From positions 1 through 38,086 of the forward strand of contig JABEVJ010000323.1 in NCBI GenBank assembly GCA_013043985.1: a stretch of 38,086 nucleotides of DNA. The letters are read 5' to 3'. This document shows positions 1 through 38,086 of the stretch, one piece after another (position 1 is the stretch's first letter; each line of letters starts with the position of its first letter). The notes under the pieces were generated by a model, which was not told where the DNA came from, did not search any database, and worked only from the letters and a program-made list of their open reading frames with translations. This DNA comes from Legionellales bacterium. Its GTDB lineage: Bacteria; Pseudomonadota; Gammaproteobacteria; UBA1113. A program made the position numbers and the translations under genes.

Positions 1-909
1 CGAGGGCACGCCGCAGGCGATACTTGTCGCCAATTTTTTGCTCCTTTTGGCGGACTCGGAGTCCCAAAAGGTTTAGCAAAAAATGGCGACACACTGGTAT
101 TATTAGCTGCTGAACGAGTAATTAGCGAGCAGGATACTGATAGTGATCTAAAACTGCTTTTAGCACCAGGATCATCTTTAGGCGGTGCCAGACCTAAAGC
201 TTCGGTTATTGATAAAGACGGTTCATTAGCCATTGCAAAATTTTCACATAAAGATGATGAAAATAATACGGTACTTTGGGAGGCGTTAGCCTTAACGTTA
301 GCAGAAAAAGCAAAGATAACTATACCTAGTTGGCGTATTGAAAATATTGCAGGCAAATCAGTACTGATTTTGCAACGTTTTGACAGAATTGAAAAAAAAC
401 GATTACCATACCTTTCTGCTATGAGTATGCTTGGTGCGCATGATAATGAACCACGCAGCTATTTAGAAATAGTAGATGCGATCAGACAATATGGTGCTGA
501 TGTTAAAAAAAACACTCACCAGTTATGGCGAAGAATAATATTTAATATTCTCATTTCTAATACGGATGACCATCTTCGAAATCATGCTTTTATTTATTCA
601 AATGCACAAGGTTGGGAGTTATCGCCAGCATATGATTTGAATCCAATATCCCCTGCCATTAAACCAAGGATATTGACTACAACTATCGATCTTGATGATG
701 GCACCGCGTCACTTGATTTGGCATTAAGTGTTATAGATTATTTTGATTTAAATTTATCTGAAGCAAAAAAAATTATACAAGAAGTTGCCATATCGGTAGC
801 GCAGTGGCGTAATGACGCCTTACGCATTGGACTGACTAAAATGGAAATTGATCAGATGGCCTCAGCTTTTGAACATGAAGATTTAGAAAAAGCGAGGAAT
901 ATAAAATAA
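1..909 (+). CDS. hipA: HipA-family Ser/Thr kinase toxin, 5' end cut by window edge
   Basis: Frame 1 is open from base 1 to the stop at 907-909. The translation contains GSSLGGARPKA (HipA P-loop-like motif) and NTDDHLRNHAF (HipA_C catalytic loop D-x-H-x-x-N). Confidence 0.8.
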   Translation, partial: RGHAAGDTCRQFFAPFGGLGVPKGLAKNGDTLVLLAAERVISEQDTDSDLKLLLAPGSSLGGARPKASVIDKDGSLAIAKFSHKDDENNTVLWEALALTLAEKAKITIPSWRIENIAGKSVLILQRFDRIEKKRLPYLSAMSMLGAHDNEPRSYLEIVDAIRQYGADVKKNTHQLWRRIIFNILISNTDDHLRNHAFIYSNAQGWELSPAYDLNPISPAIKPRILTTTIDLDDGTASLDLALSVIDYFDLNLSEAKKIIQEVAISVAQWRNDALRIGLTKMEIDQMASAFEHEDLEKARNIK

Positions 910-1347: not shown

Positions 1348-2937
1348 TTAATTTTCCATAATCATTGAATAAACCGAAATAAGCGGTGTATTTTTGGTAT
1401 AACCCGTCACCGTTGCTCGAAGCACACCCTCAGTATTGGCAGGCAGGGCGTCAATAATTTTACCTTTAGGCGAAATAACTGCAGTGATGCCATTATTATT
1501 GACGACTATCATCGGTCGTCCAGTTTCAAGCGCTCGCACTTGACTGATTTGTAATTGTTGTTCGGCAGCAATTGAGCCAGCAAACCAGCTATCATCACTA
1601 ATATTAATTAAAATATTGGCCTTATCCACTTGATACCAAATCAGCGAGGGGTAAGCTACTTCGTAACAAATGCTTGGACTAAACCACAAGCCATCAATAT
1701 CAAGCAGCGTCGATTTTTGCGTACCTGGTGTTAAATCCGACATCGGAATATTAAAAAAATTAATCAAGCCACGAAGCCAGTGCTGGAAAGGAAAGTATTC
1801 GCCAAAAGGAACCAGATGTCGTTTTTCATAACTTCCTTCTGACTGGCCTAAGACAAGCATCCCATTATAAAGCTTTTCACTGCTATCACTTAAAATGGTT
1901 CCAAGCAAGAGAGTACTTTGATGTGATAGGGCATTTTCACTGACTTGAGCCAGAAAATTAGGCACGTAATAGGTGGGGGTCGGCACGGAGCCTTCCGGCC
2001 AGACAATCAGGTTACGTCCTAACTCGGATTTTGTTAATCGCTGATAGGTAGCGAGGATTTGACTAAAATGCTGTGGATCCCATTTGATATCTTGGGTGAT
2101 ATTGCCTTGTATCAAGCTGACAGTTAGAGGCGAGGGGAGGGGCGTTGTCCATTTGATTGAGTCAATCGACGCGCCAATACCAAACAGCAAACCAAGCAAA
2201 AGAAAGCAGCCAATTTTTATACTCTTCGCACTTGAATTTTTGGCGTTGTTGCAAGCTCGCTCGGCATCGGTCATGTATTCGGTATACACTCCCTCGTCTC
2301 CCTCGCTTGCGCCTAGCCAAAAATCCAATCGCTTTGAGTATATTTTAGAATGGCTTGTCTTCATGCAAATCAAATAAATAAGTACTGAGCATAAGGCAGT
2401 TATCGTGCTGACACCATAAACACCTACCAAAGGAAAAAATCCTTGTAAAGGTGTGTTGATTTGGCTGTATCCGAGTAATACCCAAGGAAATCCACTGCCT
2501 ACCCAGCTTCGCAGCCATTCACCGAACAACCAAGTCAAGGGGAAAAAAACCAGCAGACGCCAAGTGGCTGGGGTCGGGGTCAGTAATCGAAAGAGAAACA
2601 GGCTTACTGTTGGAAAAAGAGCGAGTGTCGCTATAAAGAGGCCAGTCAAGAGCACCGCCAGAGCTGGGTTAGTTCCACCAAAGGTATGAATACTGATATA
2701 GACCCATGAGGCTGATATGCCAAAAAAACCGATCCCAAATAGCCAGCCATAAAGTGCAGCAGTGTATTTGGAGCCAGATAAAGCAAGCCAGAGTAATATA
2801 GCGGGAGCAATAAATGAAAAAAACGCTAAATTAAATGGAGCAAACCCAAGGGCAAGACTTGCGCCTGCCAGAAGAGCAATAATTAGGCTGATTGCTTGAG
2901 AAAGTTTGTAAAATGCTGTTTTAGAGATAGCTTTCAT
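1348..2937 (-). CDS. lnt: Apolipoprotein N-acyltransferase carrying an in-frame repeat-derived insertion
   Basis: It has multiple N-terminal hydrophobic segments followed by a nitrilase-like domain. The Lnt catalytic triad contexts VWPEGS, YEKRHLVPFGEY and SICYE are present. The start overlaps the upstream gene stop (TAATG). Confidence 0.9.
   Translation of the reverse strand: MKAISKTAFYKLSQAISLIIALLAGASLALGFAPFNLAFFSFIAPAILLWLALSGSKYTAALYGWLFGIGFFGISASWVYISIHTFGGTNPALAVLLTGLFIATLALFPTVSLFLFRLLTPTPATWRLLVFFPLTWLFGEWLRSWVGSGFPWVLLGYSQINTPLQGFFPLVGVYGVSTITALCSVLIYLICMKTSHSKIYSKRLDFWLGASEGDEGVYTEYMTDAERACNNAKNSSAKSIKIGCFLLLGLLFGIGASIDSIKWTTPLPSPLTVSLIQGNITQDIKWDPQHFSQILATYQRLTKSELGRNLIVWPEGSVPTPTYYVPNFLAQVSENALSHQSTLLLGTILSDSSEKLYNGMLVLGQSEGSYEKRHLVPFGEYFPFQHWLRGLINFFNIPMSDLTPGTQKSTLLDIDGLWFSPSICYEVAYPSLIWYQVDKANILINISDDSWFAGSIAAEQQLQISQVRALETGRPMIVVNNNGITAVISPKGKIIDALPANTEGVLRATVTGYTKNTPLISVYSMIMEN
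2218..2342. mobile_element. Family-2 palindromic MITE-like element inserted in frame inside lnt
   Basis: The termini tatactcttcgcacttgaattt ... gctttgagtata and the interior align with the copies at 4108-4231, 9286-9412 and 25627-25753. Element plus one TA is 123 bp, which is 41 codons. Confidence 0.8.
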
Positions 2938-4103
2938 TAAGCATTTATCTTTCCGAGTGCATACGCGAGATCATCCTGTAAATCGTGTACATCCTCAATA
3001 CCCACGGAAAGACGCGCTAAGCCATCACTTATCCCAAGCAGAGCGCGTTGCTCAGGCGGAATAGAGGCATGGGTCATAATTGCAGGATGCTCTATCAGAC
3101 TTTCAACGCCGCCCAAGCTTTCTGCCAGGGCAAACAGATGGCAGTTTTCGAGAAAAATACGTGATGGCTCAAGACCACCTTTAATCACGATGCTGATCAT
3201 GCCACCAAAACCTTTCATTTGAGTAGTCGCTAACTCATGTTGCGGATGGCTTTTTAATCCGGGATAAATGACACGCTCAATAGCAGGATGAGACTCAAGC
3301 CAGGTAGCCAGTTTCATTGCTGACTCACAATGACGTTCCATCCGCAATGCCAGTGTTTTTACTCCCCGCAGTGCTAAAAAGCTATCAAATGGGCCTGCAA
3401 TTGCACCAATGGCATTTTGCAGAAAAGCCATTTTTTCAATTAATGCATCGTTGTCATTAACGATCACAATCCCGTTAACAACATCAGAGTGGCCATTAAT
3501 ATATTTTGTTGCGGAGTGTACGACAATATCGCAACCATAAGTCAATGGTTGTTGCAACAAGGGGGTGGCAAAGGTATTGTCAGCCACAACAAGCAGATTG
3601 TGTTTTTTGGCAATGGCAACAATAGCTTTGAGATCAGCCAGCTTTAACATGGGATTGGTTGGTGTTTCAACCCAGAGCATACGGGTTTTTGGGGTAATCG
3701 CTGCTTCAATTTGACCGATATCGGTCATGTCAATGAAGGAAAAATGGAGACCTGCTGAGCGTCTTCGTACTTTGTCAAATAACCGAAAAGTACCGCCATA
3801 GAGATCGTCCATCGCTATCACATGATCACCATGATCGAGTAATTCCAGGATCGTGGAAATAGCGGCCATACCCGATGCAAAAGCAAAACCAGCTTTACCT
3901 TGCTCAAGCTCAGCTATACAGCGTTCATAAGCAAAGCGGGTGGGGTTTTGAGTGCGGGAATATTCATAGCCTTTATGAACCCCGGGACTTGATTGTACGT
4001 AGGTTGAGGTTGCATAGATAGGTTGCATGACCGCGCCAGTTGTCGGATCAGGTGTTTGTCCTGCGTGGATAACTTGGGTTGCAATGTGATAGGGTTTTGT
4101 CAT
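2937..4103 (-). CDS. Cys/Met-metabolism PLP-dependent enzyme (cystathionine gamma-lyase / gamma-synthase / beta-lyase family)
   Basis: The PLP-lysine context HSATKYINGHSD and the family-typical N-terminus TQVIHAGQTPDPTTGAV are present. I chose the start at MTKPYH (4101-4103 rc) because the 20 upstream codons read into a MITE and GAGGAG lies 6 nt upstream of this ATG. Confidence 0.85.
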   Translation of the reverse strand: MTKPYHIATQVIHAGQTPDPTTGAVMQPIYATSTYVQSSPGVHKGYEYSRTQNPTRFAYERCIAELEQGKAGFAFASGMAAISTILELLDHGDHVIAMDDLYGGTFRLFDKVRRRSAGLHFSFIDMTDIGQIEAAITPKTRMLWVETPTNPMLKLADLKAIVAIAKKHNLLVVADNTFATPLLQQPLTYGCDIVVHSATKYINGHSDVVNGIVIVNDNDALIEKMAFLQNAIGAIAGPFDSFLALRGVKTLALRMERHCESAMKLATWLESHPAIERVIYPGLKSHPQHELATTQMKGFGGMISIVIKGGLEPSRIFLENCHLFALAESLGGVESLIEHPAIMTHASIPPEQRALLGISDGLARLSVGIEDVHDLQDDLAYALGKINA

Positions 4104-4107
4104 GTGA

Positions 4108-4231
4108 TACTCCTCGGAATTGAGTCTGCGGCGTTGTTGCTTTTGACGACTCGCCATCGTCATGTATTATGTATACACTCCTCGGTTCGTGTCAAAAGCG
4201 CCTAGCCGCAAACTCAATTCCAAGGAGTATA
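4108..4231. repeat. Family-2 palindromic MITE-like element (opposite orientation to 9286-9412)
   Basis: atactcctcggaattgagtctgcgg ... ccgcaaactcaattccaaggagtata. The reverse complement matches the left half of 9286-9412. An 18-bp fragment, gagtctgcggcgttgttg (4122-4139), is repeated at 4246-4263 next to the udk stop. Confidence 0.8.
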
Positions 4232-4267
4232 AACTCGATGTAGGTGAGTCTGCGGCGTTGTTGTTTT

Positions 4268-4897
4268 CTATTCAATGCCATTGAGCAGGTTATGCATTTT
4301 GGCCTTAATCATGTCAATCGCTATGCGATTTTCACCGCCGCGGGGTACAATAATATCAGCATAACGCTTAGATGGCTCGATAAACTGTAAAAACATGGGG
4401 CGCACATTCGCTTCATATTGTTCCAAAACTGATTCAATCGTTCTGCCGCGCTTGATGACATCACGCTGTAGCCGACGGAGCAGACAGATATCAAGTGGCG
4501 CATCCATAAAAATGCGGATATCGAGCAATTCACGAAGGGCAGGGTCAACCAGCAACATAATACCTTCTAAAACGATAATTTTGTGCGAGCCAATAGTTCT
4601 GGTTAGTTTGCTGCGGTTATGTACGGTGTAATCATAAAGAGGCAGCTCGACAGCAATGCCTTGTTGCAAGTTAGCAAGATGTTTACAAAGAAGATCGTGA
4701 TCGAATGCATTAGGGTGATCGTAATTGACGAAGGCTCTTTCTTCAAGAGTGAGCGAAGATTGTTCTTTGTAATAGGAATCTTCTGGAATGACAACAACCT
4801 GATCCGAGCCAAGCTCCGAAACGATCGTGTTTGCCAGGAGACTCTTACCGGAAGCCGAAGCACCCGCGATGCCAATGATAATAGTATTTTTTTTCAT
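4268..4897 (-). CDS. udk: Uridine kinase
   Basis: Walker [21 protein letters not shown], and the C-terminal [16 protein letters not shown] typical of Udk. I set the start at MKKNTIIIG because the longer ORF-track start reads into a repeat. Confidence 0.85.
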
Positions 4898-4959
4898 GGT
4901 GAATTTGCTAGTTATGTGTGCAAGTAATTGTAACAGATATTTGGTTTGGAGTATATAGC

Positions 4960-5044
4960 CCAATGCTACTAACTTAAGGCGTTGTAGATAACAGAAACCA
5001 GAAAACCCTCGTCATTGCGAGGAGTTTACGACGAAGCAATCCAG
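4960..5044. repeat. Family-1 MITE-like repeat, partial copy
   Basis: ccaatgctactaacttaaggcgttgtagataacagaaaccagaaaaccctcgtcattgcgaggagtttacgacgaagcaatccag aligns with the reverse complement of 948-1028 and with the left arm of 6139-6270. Confidence 0.75.
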
Positions 5045-5190
5045 TGATTCCATAACGTTCGCCGTACCTAATTCGGTCTACTTTATCACCTATGTACGCG
5101 GCTCTCGTACGGAACGTAGCCGTCGTTTTTCACCTTCGTATAAGCATTATGACAGCGATTAAGACATCACTTTGCGGATAACATATTTCC

Positions 5191-6067: not shown

Positions 6068-6100
6068 TATACCCATCGCACTTCAAGTGCGATGGGTATA
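6068..6100. repeat. 33-bp perfect palindrome resembling two joined family-3 terminal inverted repeats
   Basis: tatacccatcgcact-tca-agtgcgatgggtata. Compare the family-3 termini tatacccaagatacttcaaaatgc (30558) and tatacccattgtacttcaagatgc (rc of 23621). Confidence 0.6.
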
Positions 6101-6316
6101 TAATCGCTGCTGCGTAATTAGGAATTACAGCAAACTTGGGAAAACGCTCGTCATTGCGAGGAGTTTACGACGAAGCAATCCAGAGTGATTGTAAGTGTCA
6201 AGTCCTTGATTTTACACTTTTTCTACTAGATTGCTTCGTCGCTGCGCTTCCTCGCAATGACGCCTTCGTTGTCCTGTATTTGTCGCTAGTCCACATTACG
6301 CGGCATCGACTATATA
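6097..6316. mobile_element. Family-1 MITE-like element, most complete copy (tail-core-tail, about 220 bp)
   Basis: The termini tatataatcgctgctgcgtaat and attacgcggcatcgactatata are inverted repeats. The inner palindromic core is gaaaacgctcgtcattgcgaggagtttacgacgaagcaatccag ... ctagattgcttcgtcgctgcgcttcctcgcaatgacg. Confidence 0.8.
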
Positions 6317-9282: not shown

Positions 9283-9285
9283 GTA

Positions 9286-9412
9286 TATACTCCTTGCAAT
9301 TGAATTTGCGGCTAGGCGCGGTTGACACGAGTCGCCGGAGTGTACTGCCTGTACATGAGGACGGCGAGCGGTCAACCGCAACAACGCTGCAGATTTAATT
9401 GCGGGGAGTATA
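9286..9412. repeat. Family-2 palindromic MITE-like element filling the prmB-aroC spacer
   Basis: The imperfect TIRs are tatactccttgcaattgaatttgcgg and ctgcagatttaattgcggggagtata. The interior is itself palindromic (ggttgacacgagtcgccggagtgtac / gtacatgaggacggcgagcggtcaacc). The element ends 1 nt before the aroC ATG. Confidence 0.85.
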
Positions 9413-9413
9413 A

Positions 9414-10484
9414 ATGGCGGGAAATACGTTTGGGCAAGTTTTCCGTGTCACCACCTTTGGTGAAAGTCATGGCTCGGCATTGGGTGCAATTATTGATGGT
9501 TGTCCACCGGGTATGAAATTGACTGAAGCGGATATTATGGTGGAGCTTGAAAGGCGCAAAACGGGCACGTCTCCCTTCACCTCGCAACGTAAAGAGCCTG
9601 ATGCTGTACAAATTTTATCTGGCGTTTTCAATGGCGTGACAACGGGCACTCCAATTGGTTTAGTTATTCGAAATGAGGATAATAAATCAAAGGATTATGA
9701 AGCGATTAGCGCACAGTTTCGACCGGGTCACGCAGATTATACCTATTTACAAAAATATGGTGTAAGAGATTTTCGAGGCGGCGGCAGGGCATCGGCCAGA
9801 GAAACCGTTATGCGCGTTGCCGCGGGTGCCATCGCCAAAAAATACTTGCGGGAGGTCGTTGGCATAACGATACGAGGTTGTTTAATACAAATGGGGCACG
9901 TATCCGTGCCTATTCTTGATTGGCAAGAAACTGAGAAAAATCCGTTTTTTGTTGCTAATGCTGAAAAAGTTCCTGAGTTAGAATTACTGATTCAAGCAAC
10001 ACGCAAGGCTGGCGATTCCATTGGAGCATTGATTCAGATTGAAGCGCATCAGGTTCCCGTTGGTCTGGGCGAGCCAGTATTTGATAAACTCAATGCTAGT
10101 ATTGCTCATGCGATGATGAGTATTAATGCGGTTAAAGCAGTCGAAATAGGGGATGGTTTAAGTTGTGTGACACAACCTGGCTCTGCCTTTCGAGATGAAA
10201 TGACCCGTGAAGGATTTTTATCCAATCATGCAGGCGGGATATTGGGCGGCATTTCCAACGGAGAGCCAATTATTGTTAAAGTTGCGTTTAAACCTACTCC
10301 AAGTATTATCCAACCAGGGCGCTCACTCAATACAAGTGGTGACGAAGTGACGGTGGTTACAAAAGGACGTCACGATCCGTGCGTGGGAATTCGTGGTGTG
10401 CCAATTGCTGAGGCAATGCTGGCACTGGTGTTGATGGATCACTATTTAAGAAATTTACCTAATCTCAGGAGAACAAATGAATAA
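9414..10484 (+). CDS. aroC: Chorismate synthase
   Basis: The N-terminus [20 protein letters not shown] and the [10 protein letters not shown] and RHDPCV motifs are typical of AroC. Confidence 0.92.
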
Positions 10485-13883: not shown

Positions 13884-13957
13884 GTCGCTGCGCTCCTCGC
13901 AATGACAAGCGTTTTTATATATTTGTTGTTATTTTCAGATGACACGACAGTCACTAT
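13884..13957. repeat. Family-1 MITE-like repeat, partial (right half-core plus tail)
   Basis: gtcgctgcgctcctcgcaatgacaagcgtttttatatatttgttgttattttcagatgacacgacagtcactat aligns with 19110-19188. Confidence 0.7.
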
Positions 13958-14076: not shown

Positions 14077-14532
14077 ATGTTTCGTGGAATCAATGCTATT
14101 GCTCTCGACGCCAAAGGTCGGTTATCGATCCCGACCCGCTATCGTGATGCACTTCAAACTCAAACTGCACAAGTTATTATCACTATTGACACCGATGCGC
14201 CGTGTTTATTGCTTTATCCTTTCAGTGAATGGGAAATTATTGAGCGTAAAATTGCTGAGTTGCCAAGTTTTAATCCGGTTGCTCGCCGCATTCAACGCTT
14301 GTTGATTGGACATGCAACTGAGGTTGAGCTTGATGCAAGTGGGCGTCTTTTAGTTCCCGGGGTATTACGTGAATACGCGGGTTTGCAAAAAGAGGCCATG
14401 TTGGTGGGGCAGGGGCGCAAATTTGAAATCTGGGCTGCCGAGCGTTGGCAAAGTGCACGAAATGAATGGTTGACGTCCGATTTAGTCGGTACCGAAGAAA
14501 TGCCAAATGAACTGAAAAATTTATCGTTGTAA
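14077..14532 (+). CDS. mraZ: Transcriptional regulator MraZ
   Basis: [19 protein letters not shown]... and a second GRLLVP repeat, which is the duplicated SpoVT/AbrB-like motif. It is the first gene of the dcw cluster. Confidence 0.92.
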
Positions 14533-14535
14533 GGA

Positions 14536-15477
14536 ATGCTAGTGACGGATCAGACAAGATCACATCAACCTGTGTTATTCAGTGAGTCGTTAACTCAGCT
14601 TGCTATTAAACCAGCTGGTCTATATGTAGATGCCACTTTTGGACGGGGTGGTCATACTCAGGGCATTTTAAATGCATTGAATGCAGAAGGTCGTTTAATT
14701 AGTTTTGATAAAGATCCAACCGCGATTCAATACGCTTATGACACCATTCAAGATGCAAGGCTGACGATGGTTCACGCGAGTTTTACTGAAATTAGCCAGG
14801 TATTAACGGTCAGTGGCTTGTTAGGCAAAGTGGATGGAATGCTGTTTGATTTGGGCGTTTCATCACCACAACTGGATGAAGCTGAACGCGGTTTCAGTTT
14901 TATGAATGATGGTCCTTTGGATATGCGGATGAACACTCGAGCAGGTTATACCGCAGCAGAATGGTTGAGCAAAGTGAATGAAACCATCTTGGCAGACGTC
15001 ATTTTTGAATTTGGAGAGGAACGTTTTAGTCGTCGAATTGCAAGAGCCATTGTTGAGGCTCGTAAAATATCGGTTATTTCGACCACCAAACAACTTGCAG
15101 AAATCGTCGCGACAGCGGTTCCAAAACGTGAGCCATTTAAACATCCAGCAACACGCACTTTTCAGGCGATACGTATTTTTATCAACAGTGAACTAGAGGA
15201 TTTAAAAATCGCCTTAGCTCAAAGTTTAGATGTATTGGCTGTAGGTGGACGTTTAGTGGTTATCAGTTTTCACTCACTTGAAGACAGATTGGTGAAGCAA
15301 TTTATGAAAAGAGAGTCTTCTCCCCCTGAGATTCCACGTCATATTCCCATTAAGCACACTGAGTTTAATCCAAGATTAAAAATAGTGCACAAACCCATTT
15401 TTCCTTCTGATGAAGAAGTCAGTAAAAACATAAGGGCGCGTAGCGCCGTATTAAGGACAGCGGAGAAAGAACGATGA
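14536..15477 (+). CDS. rsmH: 16S rRNA (cytosine1402-N4)-methyltransferase
   Basis: HQPVL ... YVDATFGRGGH ... DLGVSSPQLD ... SFHSLEDR motifs. A GTG at 14542 is an alternative start. Confidence 0.92.
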   Translation: MLVTDQTRSHQPVLFSESLTQLAIKPAGLYVDATFGRGGHTQGILNALNAEGRLISFDKDPTAIQYAYDTIQDARLTMVHASFTEISQVLTVSGLLGKVDGMLFDLGVSSPQLDEAERGFSFMNDGPLDMRMNTRAGYTAAEWLSKVNETILADVIFEFGEERFSRRIARAIVEARKISVISTTKQLAEIVATAVPKREPFKHPATRTFQAIRIFINSELEDLKIALAQSLDVLAVGGRLVVISFHSLEDRLVKQFMKRESSPPEIPRHIPIKHTEFNPRLKIVHKPIFPSDEEVSKNIRARSAVLRTAEKER

Positions 15478-15806
15478 ATGCAACAACAAGAGCTTATTCT
15501 CAATCAACTTATGCCCTGCAACAAACGCGGCAACAATTTTGGACACTTTCTTCTTTTGTGAGTGTTTTACTAGCGGTACTGGTTTTTTTATCGGCTTTTT
15601 CCATCGTCTATGTCAGAGATTATGAACGTCAGATGATCACTGAGTTGCAAGGTATGCAAATAACCTATGATGCGATGTTGACACAGCGAAGCCAGTTATT
15701 ACTGGAGCAAGCTGCTTTCAGCACTCAAACCCGGATTCAGGATGTTGCCGTGCAGAAATTGGGTATGGCGTTTCCAGAGCAGGAGGCGGTTATTACATTA
15801 GGTTAA
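15474..15806 (+). CDS. ftsL: Cell division protein FtsL
   Basis: A 110-aa protein with a single TM segment (LSSFVSVLLAVLVFLSAFSIVYV) followed by a coiled region. Its position between rsmH and ftsI supports the call. Confidence 0.8.
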   Translation: MNATTRAYSQSTYALQQTRQQFWTLSSFVSVLLAVLVFLSAFSIVYVRDYERQMITELQGMQITYDAMLTQRSQLLLEQAAFSTQTRIQDVAVQKLGMAFPEQEAVITLG

Positions 15807-15810
15807 ACGC

Positions 15811-17544
15811 GTGAAAAAACACTCTTTTCGTCCTTTTTTAGCATACGATGATAAATGGCGGGTTCGGTTCCTGCTTGCGTTGTTGTTTCTTACTATGCTG
15901 GTGCTGTTGGCCAGGATCGTATATCTGACAGTGTATGAACGGACTTTTTTACTGAAACAAGGGAATGCTCGTACCGTGAGAGTGATTGATATTCCTGCTC
16001 ATCGAGGTATGATTCTTGATAGAAACCATCAGCCTTTAGCGATAAGTACACCCGTTTATTCTGTGTGGATTGACCCGCATCAGTTCAGTTTACAAGATAC
16101 TCAGATTCCAGCTCTTGCTAATTTACTTCAAGAGTCTATTAAACAAATACAAGCCACGATCAATGACAAATCCAAGAGTGACTTTGTTTACCTTAAACGT
16201 CAACTTTCTCCTGATATCGCGGATCAAATAAAAGCCTTGCATATACCCGGTATTTATTTCCAGCAAAACTACAAACGTTATTACCCGGAGGCAGATGCCG
16301 TGGCGCCTTTATTGGGAATGACCAATATCGATGATCAAGGGCAAGAAGGTTTAGAGTTGGCATACAACAATTTATTACAGGGTGTACCAGGTAAAGAACG
16401 CGTACTGGTTGATTTATATGGGCATGTTGTAGCTGTACAGGGTATTGTGCAACCCGCCAGACCGGGTCATAACCTGATCTTGAGTATTGATCACCGAATT
16501 CAATATCTTGCTTACTCCGTGCTATCGAAAGCGGTTGCCGATAATAAAGCGGAATCGGGTTCAATCGTCATCATGGATATTAAAACGGGTGAAATACTGG
16601 CGATGGTGAACGCGCCTTCATATAATCCCAATACTCGTCCAAAATATCGCAATAATAATTATCGAAATCTAGCCGTAACGGATCAATTCGAACCGGGTTC
16701 CACCATGAAAACCTTCGCAGTTGCTAATGCGTTAGACAACGGCAAATACAACGCCAACACCATGGTAGATACCAATCCTGGTTGGATGATTTTAAATGGG
16801 CATCGTGTTCAGGACGAGGAAAACCTGGGAAATATCAATGTCACTACTATTTTGCAACGTTCAAGTAATATGGGGATTACCAAATTAACCTTGTCTATGC
16901 CGCCCAATAGCTTGTGGAATTTATTGCACAAAGAGGGATTTGGCCAGTCAACTCACAGTGGGTTTCCTGGCGAGGCTTTAGGCAGTTTAGTTAAACCAAG
17001 AAAATGGTCTGATATTGCGCTAGCGACGCTATCTTTTGGTTATGGCGTTTCAGCAACGATGTTGCAATTGACCCAAGCTTACGCGATGATTGGTAATGAA
17101 GGTGTTAAACACCCAGTCTCATTATTAAAGATTGATAAACCGAGTGCATCTGAGCCTGTGCTAAAAAAGAAAGTTGCCATTGAGCTTATCAACATCATGC
17201 AAAGTGTGACTGCAAAAGGCGGGTCGGGATTTCCCGCACGCATTCCCGGATATAACGTGGCGGGTAAAACGGGAACTGCGTGGATAATGGGGGCACATGG
17301 TTATGAGCGAAAGCACTTTAATGCTTTGTTTATCGGAATTGTGCCTGCAAGTAAGCCAAGAATTGTTGCTGCTATTGTAATAAAAGATCCACAAGCAGGT
17401 CATCATCAGGGCGGACAAGTTGCGGCACCTGTTTTTTCTGAAGTGATGACAGCGGTATTACGTGATCTGAATATTCCTCCTGATGATTTAACCCAAAAAG
17501 GTAAACCTGATGAAATTAAGCCAGTTGTGCCAAAACCTCATTGA
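15811..17544 (+). CDS. ftsI: Peptidoglycan D,D-transpeptidase FtsI (PBP3)
   Basis: Penicillin-binding motifs STMK (GSTMKTF), SSN (RSSNMG) and KTGTA. GTG start. Confidence 0.92.
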   Translation: MKKHSFRPFLAYDDKWRVRFLLALLFLTMLVLLARIVYLTVYERTFLLKQGNARTVRVIDIPAHRGMILDRNHQPLAISTPVYSVWIDPHQFSLQDTQIPALANLLQESIKQIQATINDKSKSDFVYLKRQLSPDIADQIKALHIPGIYFQQNYKRYYPEADAVAPLLGMTNIDDQGQEGLELAYNNLLQGVPGKERVLVDLYGHVVAVQGIVQPARPGHNLILSIDHRIQYLAYSVLSKAVADNKAESGSIVIMDIKTGEILAMVNAPSYNPNTRPKYRNNNYRNLAVTDQFEPGSTMKTFAVANALDNGKYNANTMVDTNPGWMILNGHRVQDEENLGNINVTTILQRSSNMGITKLTLSMPPNSLWNLLHKEGFGQSTHSGFPGEALGSLVKPRKWSDIALATLSFGYGVSATMLQLTQAYAMIGNEGVKHPVSLLKIDKPSASEPVLKKKVAIELINIMQSVTAKGGSGFPARIPGYNVAGKTGTAWIMGAHGYERKHFNALFIGIVPASKPRIVAAIVIKDPQAGHHQGGQVAAPVFSEVMTAVLRDLNIPPDDLTQKGKPDEIKPVVPKPH

Positions 17545-19000
17545 CCCGTCAACTTCCTATGATATCGATATCAAGGGGTTAGCATTAGATAGTCGTGATA
17601 TAAAGCCAGGCTATCTTTTTCTTGCTTGTCCTGGAACACATACCACTGGACATGATTTTATTGATAAAGCCATTGAGGCTGGTGCGGTTGCTGTTTTGTG
17701 TGATGCAAGCCCTCACATTTTCAATGATGTTATGATTACGCTCGAAGACGGACGTCAAATTCCTGTTTTGGCTGTTCCCTATCTGCTGACCTCAGTGGGT
17801 CAACTTGCCTCTCAATTTTACGGAGAACCGAGCACTCACTTTCCTGTCTATGGTGTAACTGGAACAAACGGGAAAACCTCAATTACCCACTACATCGCAC
17901 AATGTTTCAATCAAATCAATCAGCCATGTGCGGTTTTGGGAACAGTAGGGAATGGTTTTTTAGACAAACTGGAAGAAAGCTCGCATACCACAGCTGATCC
18001 TATTTCCTTACAGCAATTATTGGCTCGTTATCAAGAGCAGGGTGCAAAAGCCATTGCGATGGAAGTTTCCTCTCATGGTCTGGATCAAGGACGAGTAAAT
18101 GGGGTCTGTTTTGATTCAGCAATTTTTACTAATTTAACGCATGACCATCTTGATTATCACCAAACAATGGAAAATTATGCAGCAGCAAAACGAAAGCTAT
18201 TTTGTATGCCCGACTTGAAAAGAGGAATCTTTAATCTTGATGATGCCTATGGCAGAGCATTATTAAATGAATTTAAAGACAAAATAGACTGTTATGGCTA
18301 TTCAGTCGACCCACAGACTGGTTCTGAGTTTCCCTTAATCAAAGCTCTGGAGGTACAGTATTCTACGCAAGGCATCAACGCACAGATAGATACTCCCTGG
18401 GGGAGCGCAGAGTTGAGTTTAAGTTTATTTGGACACTTTAATCTCAGTAATGTGCTTGCAGTAATAGCATTGTTAGGCAGCAAAGGGATTTCATTTCAAG
18501 AAATTTTAGGTTTAGTCTCAAAAATCAAACCCGTAACAGGTCGAATGGAGATGCTAAAAAAAGCAGGAAAAATAACGGTTGTTGTCGATTACTCTCATAC
18601 TCCCGATTCATTAAATAAAGCATTGATAGCTATTCGTGCACACACAGGTGCAAAAATCTGGTGCGTATTTGGCTGCGGTGGAGACAGAGACAAGGGCAAA
18701 CGTCCTGAAATGGGCAAAATTGCTGAACAACTGGCTGATCACGTTATTGTTACGAATGATAATCCACGTCATGAATCTGCTGAGCAAATTGCACAAGATA
18801 TTTTGGATGGCATGAGTTATCCAGAGAAAGTGACTGTTTTATTGGATAGAGAACAAGCGATTCATTACGCCATTTCGCAAGCGCATGAAAAAGATGTTAT
18901 TCTAGTTGCCGGAAAAGGTCACGAGAATTATCAACAGGTTGGAGATGAAAAGCGTCCTTTTTCGGATCAGGCAGTGGTTAAGCAGATTCTTGGGATTTAG
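17510..19000 (+). CDS. murE: UDP-N-acetylmuramoyl-L-alanyl-D-glutamate--2,6-diaminopimelate ligase
   Basis: ATP-binding GVTGTNGKTS, a Mur ligase middle domain, and DNPR (NDNPRHE), the DAP-specificity motif. It overlaps the ftsI end. Confidence 0.92.
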   Translation: MKLSQLCQNLIDPSTSYDIDIKGLALDSRDIKPGYLFLACPGTHTTGHDFIDKAIEAGAVAVLCDASPHIFNDVMITLEDGRQIPVLAVPYLLTSVGQLASQFYGEPSTHFPVYGVTGTNGKTSITHYIAQCFNQINQPCAVLGTVGNGFLDKLEESSHTTADPISLQQLLARYQEQGAKAIAMEVSSHGLDQGRVNGVCFDSAIFTNLTHDHLDYHQTMENYAAAKRKLFCMPDLKRGIFNLDDAYGRALLNEFKDKIDCYGYSVDPQTGSEFPLIKALEVQYSTQGINAQIDTPWGSAELSLSLFGHFNLSNVLAVIALLGSKGISFQEILGLVSKIKPVTGRMEMLKKAGKITVVVDYSHTPDSLNKALIAIRAHTGAKIWCVFGCGGDRDKGKRPEMGKIAEQLADHVIVTNDNPRHESAEQIAQDILDGMSYPEKVTVLLDREQAIHYAISQAHEKDVILVAGKGHENYQQVGDEKRPFSDQAVVKQILGI

Positions 19001-19009
19001 GTCAAAAGT

Positions 19010-19188
19010 TGGAAAATGCTCGTCATTGCGAGGAAGCGCAGCGACGAAGCAATCCAGAGTAGTCATTAAGTGTCAAGATCGTGATTTTACGCTCTTTCTA
19101 CTGGATTGCTTCGTCGTAAACTCCTCGCAATGACGAGCGTTTTTAGATATTTGTTGTTGTTCCCTCATTGCGCGACAGCGACTATATA
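19010..19188. mobile_element. Family-1 MITE-like element (full palindromic core plus right tail) between murE and murF
   Basis: ggaaaatgctcgtcattgcgaggaagcgcagcgacgaagcaatccagag ... ctggattgcttcgtcgtaaactcctcgcaatgacgagcgttttt, followed by the tail atatttgttgttgttccctcattgcgcgacagcgactatata. Confidence 0.85.
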
Positions 19189-19206
19189 AAAGATAAGGAA
19201 AAAAAT

Positions 19207-20562
19207 ATGCAATTATCAGAAATTACACGAATGCTGGAAGGGCGTCTTATTGGCGCAGATGCAAGTTTTCAAGGTGTGAGTTTAAACTCCCGCACCATTC
19301 AGCCCGACCAGCTTTTTATTGCATATAAAGGAAAAAACGCGGATGGACATGATTTTCTGGATGAAGCAAAAGAGCGGGGAGCGATAGGAGCACTGGTTTT
19401 ACATCCCGTTGAGAGCACATTACCCCAGGTTGTTGTCCATGATATACGCATGTCACTGGGTGAAATCGCCAGTTATTATCGCCAACAGCTTACCATGCCT
19501 ATCATCGCATTAACGGGGAGTTGTGGTAAAACGACGACAAAAACCCTCATTGCAAAAATATTATCGAAAGTAGGGAAAGTTCATTCTACGGAAGGCACAT
19601 TAAATAATGATTATGGAATGCCATTGACGCTTCTGAATGCGAGTAAAAAAGATAAATTTGTCGTGTTGGAAATGGGTGCCAATCATCCGCAGGAAATTGC
19701 TTATCTCACTTATATTGCTCGCCCCACCATTGCATTAATCACCAACGCAGGTCCGGTACATCTTGAGGGCTTTAAAGATATTCAAGGTGTGGCACGTGCA
19801 AAGGGTGAAATATTTCAGGGATTGGCGCAAAATGGTGTCGCTATAATCAATATTGATGATGTTTTCGGGCAATATTGGCAAGAAATTGCTGCTGGAAATC
19901 CTTATATTACATTTGGTTTAAATACGCGGGCAGATGTTTATGCAGACCAAATTCAAGTGCATTCGGATGGCAGCACCACTTTTCATTTACACACACTCAG
20001 TGGTTCAGGACAGGTAAATCTCGCGTTGATCGGTAAACATAATATTATGAATGCATTGGCTGCAACGGCTGTTGGAATTGCTGCTGGAGCATCAACAGAA
20101 CAAATTTGTGCAGGTTTAAGTGAGGTCATATCAGTAGACAAACGACTGATGCCACGCGTCGGATTAAACGGGATGACGATTATTGATGACACGTATAATG
20201 CGAACCCCCGCGCCATGGAAATTGCTGTTGATGTGCTGATGGAGCTGGCTGGAGAGAAAGTATTTGTTACGGGTGACATGGGTGAGCTTGGGGCCGAGGC
20301 GGTAAAATTTCACCGCCAACTTGGTGAAATGGCACGTCTTGCAGGTGTAAACCGACTTTATGCAGTCGGCGAGTTATCGTTACATACCGCAGAGGCGTTT
20401 GGAGAAAAGGGCTATCATTTTCATGACCAGGCAGCGTTGATTGAGGCATTACAAGTCGAATTAAAACCAAATATTTGTATGTTGGTGAAAGGTTCTCGTA
20501 GCGCAAAAATGGAAAATGTGGTACAAGCTTTGCTCCCAAAAACGGAGACTCATTTATGCTAG
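19207..20562 (+). CDS. murF: UDP-N-acetylmuramoyl-tripeptide--D-alanyl-D-alanine ligase
   Basis: [10 protein letters not shown]-loop and Mur ligase domains. I chose the start at ATG 19207 (AAGGA about 9 nt upstream). The ORF-track TTG start at 19168 lies inside the repeat. Confidence 0.9.
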
Positions 20563-21638
20563 TTTGGTTAAGTGGTTTATTACAACATTATTTTCATTCA
20601 CTTGACGTTTTTCACTATATTACCTTGCGCGCTATTCTTGCTGCACTGACAGGCTTTGTCGTGAGTTTAGTCTCAGCGCCGCCTATTATTGCACGATTGC
20701 GTCGTTATAAAGTGGGTCAGCAAGTACGCAATGACGGTCCGCAAACCCATTTAGCAAAATCAGGTACACCCACAATGGGTGGGATACTGATATTGATTGC
20801 GATGACCATCAGTGTACTGACATGGGGTGATTTGGACAATCACTATCTCTGGTTGGTTTTATTAATGACGTTAGGATTTGGCTGCATTGGCGGGGTAGAT
20901 GATTACCGTAAGCTGGTTCTTAAAAACAGTAAAGGATTATCCGCTAGATGGAAGTATTTTTGGCAATCTGTTTTAGCACTGATTGCGGCATTTTATTTGT
21001 TTTATACTTCCACTACCCCTGCCGAAACACAATTAATTATTCCTTTTTTTAAACATCTTGACATTGAAATGGGCTGGTTTTTTATTCCTTTTGTTTATTT
21101 TGTCATTGTGGGCACCAGCAATGCAGTCAATTTAACCGATGGATTAGATGGTTTGGCTATTTTACCGACGGTATTAGTAGCAGCAGCACTTGGTGTTTTT
21201 GCCTATTTAACGGGGAATATGATGTTTGCGAAGTATTTAATTATTCCTTACATCCCTGGCGTTGGCGAAGTCACTATTGTCTGCTCGGCTTTGGTAGGTT
21301 CAGGTTTGGGCTTTTTATGGTTTAACACCTATCCGGCAGAAGTATTTATGGGCGATGTTGGCTCGCTGGCATTGGGCGCAGCACTTGGTGTTATCGCAGT
21401 GGTTGTCAGAGAGGAGTTGGTGCTTTTTTTGATGGGCGGCATTTTCGTTGCGGAAACCTTATCGGTTATTTTGCAGGTTGGCTCTTATAAATTGACTCAT
21501 CGGCGAATATTTCGTATGGCACCATTACATCATCATTTCGAATTGAAGGGTTGGTCTGAACCTAAAGTCATTGTGCGCTTTTGGATTGTCACTTTGGTTT
21601 TGGTTTTATTGGGTTTGGCAACGTTAAAGTTAAGATAA
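20556..21638 (+). CDS. mraY: Phospho-N-acetylmuramoyl-pentapeptide transferase
   Basis: Polytopic membrane protein with [18 protein letters not shown] and HHHFE motifs. It overlaps the murF stop. Confidence 0.93.
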
Positions 21639-21685
21639 TCAGTCTGTTTGGGTATAGCGTTAGTTTAAGGCATGAAAGGTGTCTG

Positions 21686-22462
21686 ATGAAAATTGATGGA
21701 ATATTAAAATATTGGCACCCAAGACCGCATGTTTTTGCAAAATTTATCCTCTTTATGACGGTATTTGCTATTTCAACTGCTTTTGCAAGTCCACCTTTTC
21801 TGACTGATGGCGCGGATGTGACTGATTATCAGAAATATGATGCTTATTTATACTCCATGACCGATGCTCGTCCGGGTACGATTTATCTACAAACTCCAGC
21901 AGTTGAGCTTGATTGGGGATTTGCGCCCAATTTTGAAGTTGAGCTTATAGCTCCGCTGGTGAGTATCATAAAAACCGGGATCCCCAATGCCACTGGCGTG
22001 GGTGATACAGACATAGCACTAGGTTATCGTTTCCATCAAGAAACAGCAAATACGCCTGCCATGGCGTTTATTCCGCTCATATCCATTCCAACGGGTGATG
22101 TGAATAGATATTTGGGTAATGGCCAGATGACCACCCAACTACCAGTTTGGTTCCAAAAATCATTTAAAAATTGGACAATAGATACCGGAGGCGGATACAA
22201 CATTAACCATGCGCCCAATACATTTAATAATTATTTTGGTGGATTTTTGCTACAAAATCAGATTAATCAAAAATGGAGTTTAGGAGGTGAGATTTTTTCT
22301 CAAGGGGCACAAACGACCACTCAGGCTGCTTATACGGTGCTAAATTTAGGAGGATCGTATAATTTCACTCCAACTTTGAGCTTACTTTTTAGTGCGGGTA
22401 ATAGCATAGCTGGACAGCAAAACTTTATTTCCTATCTTGGTTTATACTGGGTTTCGAGTTAG
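21686..22462 (+). CDS. Outer-membrane beta-barrel protein, MetA-pathway/phenol-degradation-like (PF13557-like), paralog 1
   Basis: Signal peptide ...FAISTAFA|SPPFLTDG, alternating beta-strand pattern, aromatic C-terminus YLGLYWVSS. Start at MKIDG, because the longer ORF overlaps mraY. The family assignment is from memory of the PFxTDDA N-terminal signature. Confidence 0.6.
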   Translation: MKIDGILKYWHPRPHVFAKFILFMTVFAISTAFASPPFLTDGADVTDYQKYDAYLYSMTDARPGTIYLQTPAVELDWGFAPNFEVELIAPLVSIIKTGIPNATGVGDTDIALGYRFHQETANTPAMAFIPLISIPTGDVNRYLGNGQMTTQLPVWFQKSFKNWTIDTGGGYNINHAPNTFNNYFGGFLLQNQINQKWSLGGEIFSQGAQTTTQAAYTVLNLGGSYNFTPTLSLLFSAGNSIAGQQNFISYLGLYWVSS

Positions 22463-22464
22463 CT

Positions 22465-23217
22465 ATGAAAATGCATCGAATATTAAAACACGTTATTGCG
22501 CAACTTATCAGTTTATTTATTATTACTGCCGCGTTTGCAGGGCCGCCGTTTCTAACCGATGACACCGATGTGACTGATTACCAGCAGCGCCAATTATATT
22601 TCTACTCGATGACGGACGCTTATCCGGGTACGGTGAATCTACAAACTCCGGCTGCTGAACTGGATTGGGGTTTTGCTCCCAATCTTGAAGTCGAAATTGC
22701 TGTTCCACTTGTTAGTAACATTGAAATTGGTATGCCCAATGCAACAGGTTTGGGTGATACTAGCGTATCACTTGGTTATCGGTTTCATCAAGAAACTGCG
22801 AAAACGCCTGCCATTGCTTTTATTCCAGAAATAACCATTCCAACAGGCAATGCGAATAAGGATTTGGGTAATGGAAAGATCATTACACAACTGCCATTTT
22901 GGTTTCAAAAATCAATTGGAAACTGGACTATCGACACGGGAGGCGGATATAACATTAACCATGCTCCGCAGATGTTTAATAATTACTTTGGCGGTTTCTT
23001 GTTACAAAATCAGATTAATCAAAAATTGAGTTTGGGTGGAGAAATTTTTTATCAGGGCGCACAGGCCACTAACCAAGAAGCTTATACAGCCCTGAATTTA
23101 GGGGGAACGTATAATTTTACACCAACCTTTAGTTTGCTCTTTAGTGCTGGCAACAGTATAGCCGGACAACAAAATTTTATTTCCTACCTTGGTTTATACT
23201 GGGCTTCATCGAGTTAG
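22465..23217 (+). CDS. Outer-membrane beta-barrel protein, paralog 2 (tandem duplicate)
   Basis: Collinear and highly similar to 21686-22462, for example WTIDTGGGYNINHAP, NNYFGGFLLQNQINQK and LLFSAGNSIAGQQNFISYLGLYW. Signal peptide ...ITAAFA|GPPFLTDD. Confidence 0.6.
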   Translation: MKMHRILKHVIAQLISLFIITAAFAGPPFLTDDTDVTDYQQRQLYFYSMTDAYPGTVNLQTPAAELDWGFAPNLEVEIAVPLVSNIEIGMPNATGLGDTSVSLGYRFHQETAKTPAIAFIPEITIPTGNANKDLGNGKIITQLPFWFQKSIGNWTIDTGGGYNINHAPQMFNNYFGGFLLQNQINQKLSLGGEIFYQGAQATNQEAYTALNLGGTYNFTPTFSLLFSAGNSIAGQQNFISYLGLYWASSS

Positions 23218-23302: not shown

Positions 23303-23379
<77 letters not shown>

Positions 23380-23460: not shown

Positions 23461-23621
23461 TATATAGTTGCTGTCGCGAAATTGAAAATGACAGCAAATA
23501 TGGAAAAACGCTCGCAATAGTTATTCATATTGTGCAGTTTTAATCGTTTCATAGGGCGGAAAAGAGCAAGACAAAAACCCGAAATATGAAATGCTTCGCA
23601 TCTTGAAGTACAATGGGTATA
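23461..23621. mobile_element. Chimeric MITE-like element: family-1 tail at one end, family-3 half at the other
   Basis: The left end tatatagttgctgtcgcgaaattgaaaatgacagcaaatatggaaaaacgctcgc is the reverse complement of the family-1 tail. The remainder, read in reverse complement (tatacccattgtacttcaagatgc...aaacgattaaaactgcacaatatgaataactattgc), matches 30558-30660 and 37988-38086. Confidence 0.7.
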
Positions 23622-23664
23622 TTGAGGGACACTGATATTAATGACGAATATTTGAGGATAATGC

Positions 23665-25618: not shown

Positions 25619-25626
25619 CTCTGGTA

Positions 25627-25753
25627 TATACCCTCAAGATTGCATTTGCGGCTAGATGCGGTTGACTCGGGCCACCGGAATGTACACACAAGTACATGAG
25701 GATGACGAGACGTCAATCGCAACCACACAGCAGATTCAATATCGAGGGGTATA
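25627..25753. repeat. Family-2 palindromic MITE-like element in the nusA-infB spacer
   Basis: tataccctcaagattgcatttgcggctagatgcggttgactcgggccaccggaatgtac ... gtacatgaggatgacgagacgtcaatcgcaaccacacagcagattcaatatcgaggggtata. It is collinear with 9286-9412 and, at 127 bp, the same length. Confidence 0.85.
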
Positions 25754-25787
25754 TCTAAAACAACTTGAAAAAGGGGCCGTCAATCTT

Positions 25788-30483: not shown

Positions 30484-30882
30484 CTAATGAAGACAACCGA
30501 CAACATGTCGCCTTATTTGTTTAGCATGTGTGGCATTATCACGCGGTGTTGACCAAATATACCCAAGATACTTCAAAATGCTAATTTCTGACTTGTTCTT
30601 TTACGCCAGAGTAATATTATAAAAACTTCACAATATGAATAACTATTGCTCGTTTTTATAATATTACCTGACATAAAATAACGGCGTCATAAACTTAGCA
30701 TTTTGAAGTATCTTGGGTATAGACATACCGCAACCTTCACGCTCTTGATGAGGGCAAAGTAGGCGACCCCATGCATGAGCCGAGTTGCCAGTTTTTTTAT
30801 ACCGCCATCCTCTCTCTTCCGCGTACTGAATTGCGGCTTCTATTTCTTTACTAGGATGCCTTGGTCTATGTGCAGCCTGCAT
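30484..30882 (-). pseudogene. Small Cys/His-rich gene (78 aa when restored) split by a MITE
   Basis: The upstream part is MQAAHRPRHPSKEIEAAIQYAEERGWRYKKTGNSAHAWGRLLCPHQEREGCGMS. After the repeat, the same frame continues IWSTPRDNATHAKQIRRHVVGCLH*. The current ORF stops inside the element at 30664. Confidence 0.75.
30558..30721. mobile_element. Family-3 MITE with perfect 27-bp terminal inverted repeats and TA target duplication
   Basis: tatacccaagatacttcaaaatgctaa (30558-30584) is the exact reverse complement of ttagcattttgaagtatcttgggtata (30695-30721). The interior shares cacaatatgaataactattgc with 23461-23621 and 37988-38086. Confidence 0.9.
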
Positions 30883-37960: not shown

Positions 37961-37987
37961 CGTGTATGATTCCTTATGATTAATAAC

Positions 37988-38086
37988 TATACTCAACACA
38001 CATGAGTTTTCGGTTTTCTAACTTGCTATTTTACGCCAGAAGAAACGATTAAAACTGCACAATATGAATAACTATTGCTGGTTTTA
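37988..38086. repeat. Family-3 MITE-like element, diverged left end, cut by window edge
   Basis: tatactcaacacacatgagttttcggttttctaacttgctattttacgccagaagaaacgattaaaactgcacaatatgaataactattgc aligns with 30558-30655. Confidence 0.7.

Follow-up and report, generated by a model that had tools for sequence, protein, structure and literature searches.

A palindromic MITE (miniature inverted-repeat transposable element) is inserted in frame in lnt, the gene for apolipoprotein N-acyltransferase, of a Legionellales bacterium (assembly GCA_013043985.1, contig JABEVJ010000323.1; the whole 38,086-nt stretch analyzed is referred to here as "the window"). The insertion had been noticed in a preliminary description of this DNA and was confirmed. 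We consider it likely that a MITE resembling the enterobacterial repetitive intergenic consensus (ERIC) inserted at a TA in lnt codon 199, and that it is a tolerated in-frame passenger of an enzyme that still functions.

The element copy occupies 125 nt on the plus strand (window 2218 to 2342), reads TATACTCTTCGC...TTTGAGTATA and forms an imperfect palindrome with terminal inverted repeats TATACTC...GAGTATA; its assignment was based on its sequence, nhmmer, the predicted hairpin, and alignment with family copies and ERIC. Read along the plus strand, it is oriented like the published ERIC/RU-1 consensus from E. coli, and lnt (window 1348 to 2937, minus strand), an intact open reading frame (ORF) of 529 codons, is transcribed antisense to it. 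Translation of the ORF runs through the element without a stop, as originally claimed, and gives ...SHSK-IYSKRLDFWLGASEGDEGVYTEYMTDAERACNNAKNSSAKS-IKIG..., in which the 41 extra codons (window 2221 to 2343, minus strand; residues 199 to 239, IYSKRLDFWLGASEGDEGVYTEYMTDAERACNNAKNSSAKS) include the peptide GASEGDEGVYTEYMTDAER. The added segment is hydrophilic and slightly acidic (grand average of hydropathy [GRAVY] of −0.84, isoelectric point of 4.7), and its frame ranks among the most hydrophilic of the six frames of the element. Elements of this kind are 125 to 128 nt long and lack a transposase gene, their sole ORFs being read-through frames of 41 to 42 codons. The lnt-sense strand of the element was predicted to fold into a single long hairpin (−48.9 kcal/mol; z = −5.85 against 200 shuffles). 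No terminator-like site was found in the lnt copy, and promoter-like matches in it were at background level.

The closest ortholog (P0001, 68 to 71% identity) lies in a locus (L033) with the same udk, metC-like, lnt gene order and lacks the insertion. Its site reads ...AGC TCG CCG AAG CTA AAA GTC..., compared with ...AGC CAT TCT AAA A[TA] TAC TCA ... AAG AG[TA] TA AAA ATT... in the window. Relative to P0001, lnt shows a net gain of 123 nt (41 codons), and deletion of 123 nt yields a codon-for-codon match. Comparison of filled and empty sites identified two flanking TA dinucleotides, one at window 2218 to 2219 and one at 2341 to 2342 within the lnt codon ATA (I199), which can be read as the two copies of a target-site duplication. 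The simplest reading of the two sequences would be a 121-nt element plus one duplicated TA, in agreement with the earlier account of a TA-ended palindromic MITE whose 121 nt and single TA add up to 123 nt, or 41 codons. Locus L033 is also devoid of both neighboring intergenic copies of the repeat, the corresponding spacers measuring 15 and 2 nt, compared with 164 and 131 nt for those of the window. An empty site, which the preliminary description had proposed to look for in sister strains, was thus available in a syntenic ortholog; the sister strains themselves did not materialize, as a degenerate junction pattern retrieved no near-identical strain with an empty or a filled lnt site from metagenome contigs.

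Comparison with more distant homologs gave the same picture. When the protein was aligned to solved structures of Lnt, it matched in two blocks that break at the element (query residues 19 to 188 and 239 to 519 matching chain residues 33 to 203 and 214 to 497), leaving ∼40 query residues unmatched between them. Between fixed anchor columns, the loop comprised 8 to 17 residues (mode 12) in 120 Lnt homologs, against 54 in the window. The 41 residues were missing from all 120 homologs, the syntenic ortholog included, which bears out the proposal that they are specific to this lineage.

Short-read assemblies break at repeats, and a repeat copy could in principle have been misplaced into lnt. A contig from a separate assembly (Logan contig L034, SRR9677582) was 100% identical to window 2312 to 4150 and extended from lnt 31 nt into the element, crossing one lnt-element junction; it stops inside both flanking copies and therefore covers only one of the two lnt junctions. 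Because this contig reads from lnt into the element, we regard an assembly artifact as extremely improbable. Both junctions are moreover precise at TA, with removal of 123 nt restoring the ortholog's codons, and the lnt copy differs by 35 to 43% from the other copies in the window, so that it was not copied from them.

Integrity of Lnt and the site of the insert

Apart from the insert, the 529 codons of lnt, examined with Pfam, NCBIfam, Protein Data Bank structures, AlphaFold2 (AF2) and Foldseek, carry no further lesion. Pfam assigned LNT_N to residues 24 to 186 and CN_hydrolase to residues 272 to 512, and the NCBIfam equivalog model TIGR00546 scored 289.7 bits (cutoff, 132.9). Structure matches included Lnt of Pseudomonas aeruginosa (E = 2.9 × 10−78) and E. 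coli (E = 2.5 × 10−64). The catalytic residues, previously stated to be intact from their sequence contexts, occupy invariant columns in an alignment of 121 Lnt sequences, and their codons were verified on the minus strand (E315, window 1993 to 1995; K372, 1822 to 1824; C424, 1666 to 1668). Across columns conserved at ≥90%, the window protein keeps 80 of 84 residues and the insert-free ortholog 79 of 84.

An AF2 model built from the 121-sequence alignment had a mean predicted local distance difference test (pLDDT) score of 92.4 and a predicted template modeling (TM) score of 0.92, with low confidence solely at residues ∼190 to 230 (pLDDT of 54 to 74); Foldseek superposed it on E. coli Lnt (8b0p) with TM scores of 0.85/0.88. 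On the 5′ side of the insert, the AF2 secondary structure places membrane helix H6 (residues 163 to 191; window 2365 to 2451, minus strand), and on its 3′ side H7 (residues 240 to 259; window 2161 to 2220, minus strand), with the insert modeled as a short helix (196 to 207), a coil (208 to 223) and a helical extension that joins H7 (224 to 259). The published Lnt structure comprises eight helices; its N and C termini are cytoplasmic, and a periplasmic domain bridges H7 and H8 (PMC5500888). In the model, the insert is in the H6-H7 turn, far from the active site, and is predicted to face the cytoplasm because the published topology puts the N-terminal end of H7 there. The model and this topology thus agree with the earlier placement of the insert between two hydrophobic segments just before the nitrilase-like domain, and with the cytoplasmic location suggested for the loop; the helix that follows the insert is the last membrane helix leading to the periplasmic nitrilase domain. 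We also observed that the window protein and 20 of the 120 homologs end within 14 residues of the conserved TP motif (window 1348 to 1380). These proteins thus appear to lack a tail long enough for the eighth membrane helix of E. coli and P. aeruginosa Lnt.

These data suggest the following course of events. A non-autonomous ERIC-like MITE would have entered lnt at a TA within codon 199, mobilized in trans by a putative TA-duplicating transposase, and the 121-nt element with its duplicated TA would have added 123 nt, a net gain that keeps the lnt frame. Translation of the element would then yield a segment of 41 residues, hydrophilic and slightly acidic, that lengthens the short cytoplasmic turn between H6 and H7, and Lnt is expected to stay functional because the membrane separates this turn from the active site in the periplasm. 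Survival of such an insertion would reflect a filter, in which copies that combine a permissive loop, a hydrophilic stop-free frame and a frame-preserving length persist and others are purged. We infer that Lnt activity is retained with the insert, which is most likely a tolerated and presumably neutral passenger and not an adaptation.

The main alternative is that lnt is inactivated or decaying, its ORF open merely by the nature of the element, in an organism that manages without N-acylation. The preliminary description assumed that lnt is essential. Some Gram-negative bacteria, among them Francisella and Neisseria, can do without Lnt, the insert is modeled at low confidence, this Lnt lineage already goes without H8, and, with the copy open in four of six frames and a gain of 123 nt, an open ORF would be expected by chance in about half of insertions. 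The conservation data nonetheless favor an intact Lnt and weaken this alternative, which we judge unlikely: no other lesion has accumulated, the protein retains no fewer of the highly conserved positions than does the ortholog without the insert, its catalytic triad is intact, TIGR00546 scores well above its cutoff, and the model is confident outside the insert. Furthermore, the H6-H7 loop is the one Lnt loop that varies in length in other lineages, and in-frame copies of the element occur in HemC, TilS and FeoB (see below), which are unlikely all to be dispensable.

The same turn holds unrelated extra segments of 25 to 54 residues in four homologs of other lineages (P0012, P0038, P0067 and P0074), and it looks like a recurrent permissive site of Lnt. 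The insert of P0012 (L035, 83 to 1702) folds as a hairpin (−36.9 kcal/mol). The loop of P0067 (L070, 1501 to 3045) was considered as a further copy of the family on the basis of its similar peptide (DSQQSG...ERVCGND) and was rejected, as nhmmer found no relation at the DNA level and the loop contains GCGGGAATGACGA repeats.

The repeat family and its in-frame copies in other proteins

Three further copies lie between genes of the window: one on the plus strand between udk and a metC-like gene, both of which are on the minus strand (4105 to 4232), and two on the minus strand, of which one fills the spacer that separates aroC from a prmB-like methyltransferase gene (9285 to 9413) and the other is located between nusA and infB (25626 to 25754). 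All three were recognized by repeat finding and nhmmer. A motif derived from the four window copies (TCATGTA N5-10 TACAYTCC N17-24 CTAGCCRMAAA) matched the window exactly four times (at 2271, 4160, 9305 and 25645; 0.00 in shuffles), and the nhmmer family model recovered the lnt copy with E = 4.8 × 10−31. The lnt copy was 57 to 65% identical to the three intergenic copies and 79 to 83% identical to copies in Legionellaceae bacterium C5_metabat.bin.53, and it was therefore assigned to the same family but another subfamily. The earlier statement that it is a copy of the repeat seen at the three intergenic sites thus holds at the level of the family and not of the subfamily.

Scanning one genome per species with the motif returned 32 loci, and a metagenome scan returned 32 more. 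Nearly all genome hosts were metagenome-assembled genomes (MAGs) with titles such as Gammaproteobacteria bacterium 39-13, MFD04540, Candidatus Berkiella sp., Legionellaceae bacterium and Coxiellaceae bacterium. From the 32 genome loci, 36 full-length copies aligned well; from TATA to TATA, 17 of them span 128 nt and four span 125 nt. Net of one TA, the length preserves the reading frame in 21 of 36 copies (17 of 27 when restricted to non-identical copies with clean ends). The consensus stem showed compensatory changes at 18 of 23 pairs in 26 copies. Rfam gave no match to the element at gathering thresholds; the one match at relaxed thresholds, a plant microRNA precursor (E = 0.58), was at chance level and was discarded. 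A phage origin was likewise dismissed, with no match in viral contigs. A fixed orientation seemed suggested by the window, where all four copies are antisense to local transcription, yet over 17 co-directional intergenic copies the two orientations numbered 11 and 6. Relative to the family orientation, copies inside ORFs of the retrieved loci were antisense in seven cases and sense in two.

Beyond Lnt, the element is read in frame in FeoB between the G domain (residues 19 to 176) and the cytosolic helical domain (230 to 310), an insertion that recurs in two metagenome contigs, and it is also read through in frame in a helix-turn-helix protein. A word-indexed protein search with the insert peptide found small ORFs on intergenic copies only. 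A profile of the element peptide, searched exhaustively against 1.84 billion representative proteins (E ≤ 0.001), gave 138 matches, many of them small ORFs on intergenic copies; 48 of 112 new profile matches were in proteins of ≥150 aa. Pfam domains flank the insert on both sides in HemC, TilS, DprA, an EPSP-synthase-family protein and an APH-family kinase, and inserts were also present in ankyrin-repeat and RHS proteins. The HemC, TilS and DprA hosts all come from the Legionellaceae C5 MAG, and hemC of C5_metabat.bin.53 (L036, 3770 to 3947) carries one full and one partial copy side by side, both in frame, as confirmed on the DNA. These host proteins share the frame used in lnt (Y[SP]QQLDFRLGA...GVY..YMTD.E...NNAENSSAKSI), which is the only frame that the profile could detect.

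Some matches were set aside. An RsmB-like protein (P0271) was rejected as an internal insertion, as its matches fall in a long extension of the N terminus, which could be an artifact of gene calling. This protein and four others (P0231, P0211, P0245 and P0247) have four to seven element-peptide matches and join unrelated domains, such as a polyprenyl synthetase and a UvrD C-terminal domain; they are probably annotation artifacts, namely ORFs fused across tandem intergenic copies.

Several observations weigh against reading the lnt copy as a TA insertion that was filtered for tolerance. At the junction, the sequence TATA also fits a duplication of 3 nt or of 0 nt, so that duplication lengths other than TA remain compatible. 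Neither a near-identical sister strain, as noted above, nor an autonomous transposase with matching ends in the retrieved loci was found. Since the lnt copy is stop-free in four of six frames and has a frame-preserving length, the open lnt frame is weak evidence of selection, and the excess of frame-preserving lengths across the family could reflect a subfamily founder effect instead of selection because the copies are not independent. Within the mRNA, a hairpin of −48.9 kcal/mol could lower lnt expression. Finally, an Lnt lineage lacking H8 already departs from the E. coli model.

The intergenic copies have features of their own. In the 4105 to 4232 copy, a terminal GAGGAG lies 7 nt before the ATG of the metC-like gene, and GGAG of the terminal repeat lies 5 to 8 nt upstream of the start codon of both the metC-like gene (GAGGAGTATCACATG; window 4101 to 4120) and aroC (GGGGAGTATAAATG; window 9400 to 9416), where the element is a possible source of the ribosome-binding site. 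Between nusA and infB (window 25626 to 25800), the copy is open and in frame with infB, and the mechanically called ORF begins within the element, at 25656; infB itself probably starts at the Met at 25788. A 22-nt fragment of an element arm (AACAACAACGCCGCAGACTCA; 4250 to 4270) adjoins the full copy at 4105 to 4232.

Relationship to ERIC and other palindromic elements

ERIC, among the bacterial repeats that have been known for longest, is 127 bp long, has TA ends and is reported to duplicate TA (PMC2759123). Our family model aligned end to end with E. coli ERIC at 23.9 bits (E = 6 × 10−5 in a 5-Mb search space), whereas 500 shuffles scored at most 5.6 bits. In the reciprocal search, a narrow ERIC model built from three sequences reached 6.1 bits (E = 0.26), which is not significant, with MITE copies as its top two matches. 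Because this reciprocal search was not significant, and with identity to ERIC at ∼50%, the sequence comparison points to a distant relative of ERIC and not to ERIC proper. The two share nearly the same size (127 bp against 125 to 128 bp), an imperfect palindrome with termini TATAC[TC]C...G[GA]GTATA (TATACTCTTCGCACTTGAAT here and TATACTCGTCATACTTCAAG in Salmonella ERIC; over its first 20 nt, the lnt copy agrees with the latter at 15 positions) and collinear conserved blocks (GCGTTG, CTC.CC, GTCA-stem-loop-stem-CTCC and CGCCT.GC). A copy from Berkiella (L021) is intermediate, having CTCACCCCAGTCA...CTCCTGGGGATTC.CTCAC in common with ERIC, and copies of both are often found between cotranscribed genes.

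Differences from ERIC concern hosts, structure and behavior in genes. Hosts of the present family are Legionellales-like MAGs (Legionellaceae, Coxiellaceae, Candidatus Berkiella and Gammaproteobacteria) and not Enterobacteriaceae; ERIC also occurs in Vibrionaceae. The apical stem differs through compensatory changes. Insertion of a 127-bp ERIC adds a net 125 nt and shifts the frame, whereas the 128- and 125-nt classes of the present family add 126 and 123 nt and keep it. The ERIC cases considered here (PMC2759123) were mostly terminal ORF fusions, in contrast to the insertions inside conserved enzymes seen here.

The element core (GCGTTGTTG...TCATGTAC-loop-GTACACTCC...GCCTAGCC) is common to enterobacterial ERIC and to 3′ hairpins of gut Firmicutes. 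In the form GGCGTTGTTG..TCATGTAC..GTACACTCC..GCCTAGCC, it was also found in contigs of MAGs titled Firmicutes, Clostridia and Bacteroidaceae (GC content of 27 to 52%); occurrences outside Legionellales-like MAGs are at L037 3049 to 3175, L011 286 to 412 and L010 90 to 320, and in L043, L051, L058 and L017. In L037, the core forms a long hairpin that immediately follows the stop codon of a gene for a large surface protein, with no match in Rfam.

Conservation of this core beyond what the terminal repeats need, its presence in ERIC and in the elements of gut Firmicutes, and the compensatory changes in its stem raise the question of whether the insert has been co-opted, either as a peptide that gained a function in regulation, partner binding or stabilization, or as an RNA hairpin that regulates lnt. 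The recurrence of one peptide frame across many unrelated proteins might be taken in the same sense, and ERIC RNA has been reported to influence mRNA stability (PMC3184786). However, none of the 120 other Lnt proteins, the closest ortholog included, has the segment, half of the insert is modeled as disordered, and the insertion sites have no common conserved context on the host side. Recurrence of the frame is more simply explained by a filter for hydrophilic, stop-free frames, and we consider co-option very unlikely next to a passenger that Lnt tolerates.

Among known systems, Rickettsia palindromic elements (RPEs) offer the closest parallel in behavior, and their transcription within host genes has been shown in Rickettsia. 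Like RPEs, the present elements are palindromic, measure ∼100 to 150 bp, encode a conserved peptide and lie in frame in many unrelated housekeeping genes (here those for Lnt, FeoB, HemC, TilS and DprA) of intracellular or host-associated bacteria. Unlike RPEs, which belong to Alphaproteobacteria, they occur in Gammaproteobacteria related to Legionellales, and they have clear TA-flanked terminal repeats and a relationship to ERIC. Membership in an RPE family by sequence was rejected, as the insert peptides had no NCBIfam match at E values up to 10; the NCBIfam library includes RPE domain models. In-frame RPEs are thought to be compatible with the fold of their host proteins (PMC10969869). The preliminary description had drawn the parallel to RPEs and proposed a different element in a different lineage. 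The difference in lineage and the parallel itself stand, the latter extended by the in-frame cases in FeoB, HemC, TilS, DprA and the EPSP-synthase-family protein; the element, in turn, proved to be a distant relative of the known ERIC/IRU repeats. By analogy, it would work like an RPE in function and come closest to ERIC in descent.

Correia elements (NEMIS) of Neisseria and other TA-duplicating MITEs are likewise small, start their terminal inverted repeats with TATA and are frequent inside transcription units. Compared by description only, they resemble the present family in size, TATA-starting repeats and TA duplication; what Correia elements are mainly known to do is to affect expression and disrupt genes, not to insert peptides in frame. 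Coxiella burnetii, also a member of the Legionellales, harbors MITEs named QMITE1 (300 to 400 bp, with variable 2- to 3-nt repeats, basic peptides and C-terminal ORF overlaps) and QMITE2 (150 to 190 bp, with 7- to 11-nt repeats and a GTAG repetitive extragenic palindrome) (PMC5896051). QMITE1 is similar in that it overlaps annotated ORFs and encodes small peptides. Identity with either was rejected from the published descriptions, since size, ends and duplication do not match the 125 to 128 nt with TA of the present family.

In-frame MITE insertion is of a known kind, to which the lnt case adds an RPE-like protein-coding MITE. The literature searched contained no description of this element family, or of its in-frame behavior, in Legionellales-like bacteria, and in-frame palindromic elements have so far been discussed mostly as a peculiarity of Rickettsia. 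It is quite possible, although we put this forward tentatively, that a MITE of an ERIC superfamily has been turned or filtered into a frame-preserving, protein-coding palindrome that keeps to one hydrophilic frame across many housekeeping genes of Legionellales-like Gammaproteobacteria associated with amoebae; that this is a second independent instance besides Rickettsia; and that the core, as its sharing with ERIC and the hairpins of gut Firmicutes suggests, is a structured DNA or RNA module of ancient origin whose function goes beyond binding a transposase. In bacteria under relaxed selection, the gain of MITE-derived peptides is probably a more general way for proteins to change. Such insertions are natural loop-insertion experiments that would show where Lnt, FeoB, HemC, TilS and DprA are permissive; Lnt has been proposed as an antibiotic target, and the length of its H6-H7 turn varies in other lineages as well. 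The relationship described here would widen the host range of the ERIC superfamily. For annotation, it is also worth noting that family copies give rise in MAGs to lengthened genes and to spurious small ORFs by the dozen, with at least 50 small ORFs called on family copies within one MAG.

The window contains further repeats. A third family (6068 to 6090, 23514 to 23623, 30555 to 30721 and 37985 to 38086) has termini (TATACCCATCGCACTTCAAG) closer to the ends of ERIC than are those of the lnt element, and it may use the same transposase as the latter. An abundant family around CTCGTCATTGCGAGGAGTTTACGACGAAGCAAT occupies many intergenic spacers in both orientations (948 to 1033, 4955 to 5045, 6121 to 6262, 13893 to 13957, 18990 to 19185 and 23482 to 23526). 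Other features are an ORF with a HipA C-terminal domain that runs off the start of the window (370 to 909), a tRNA gene at 23303 to 23376 and, judging from ORF order only, what is probably a dcw cell-division cluster at ∼14077 to 23217.

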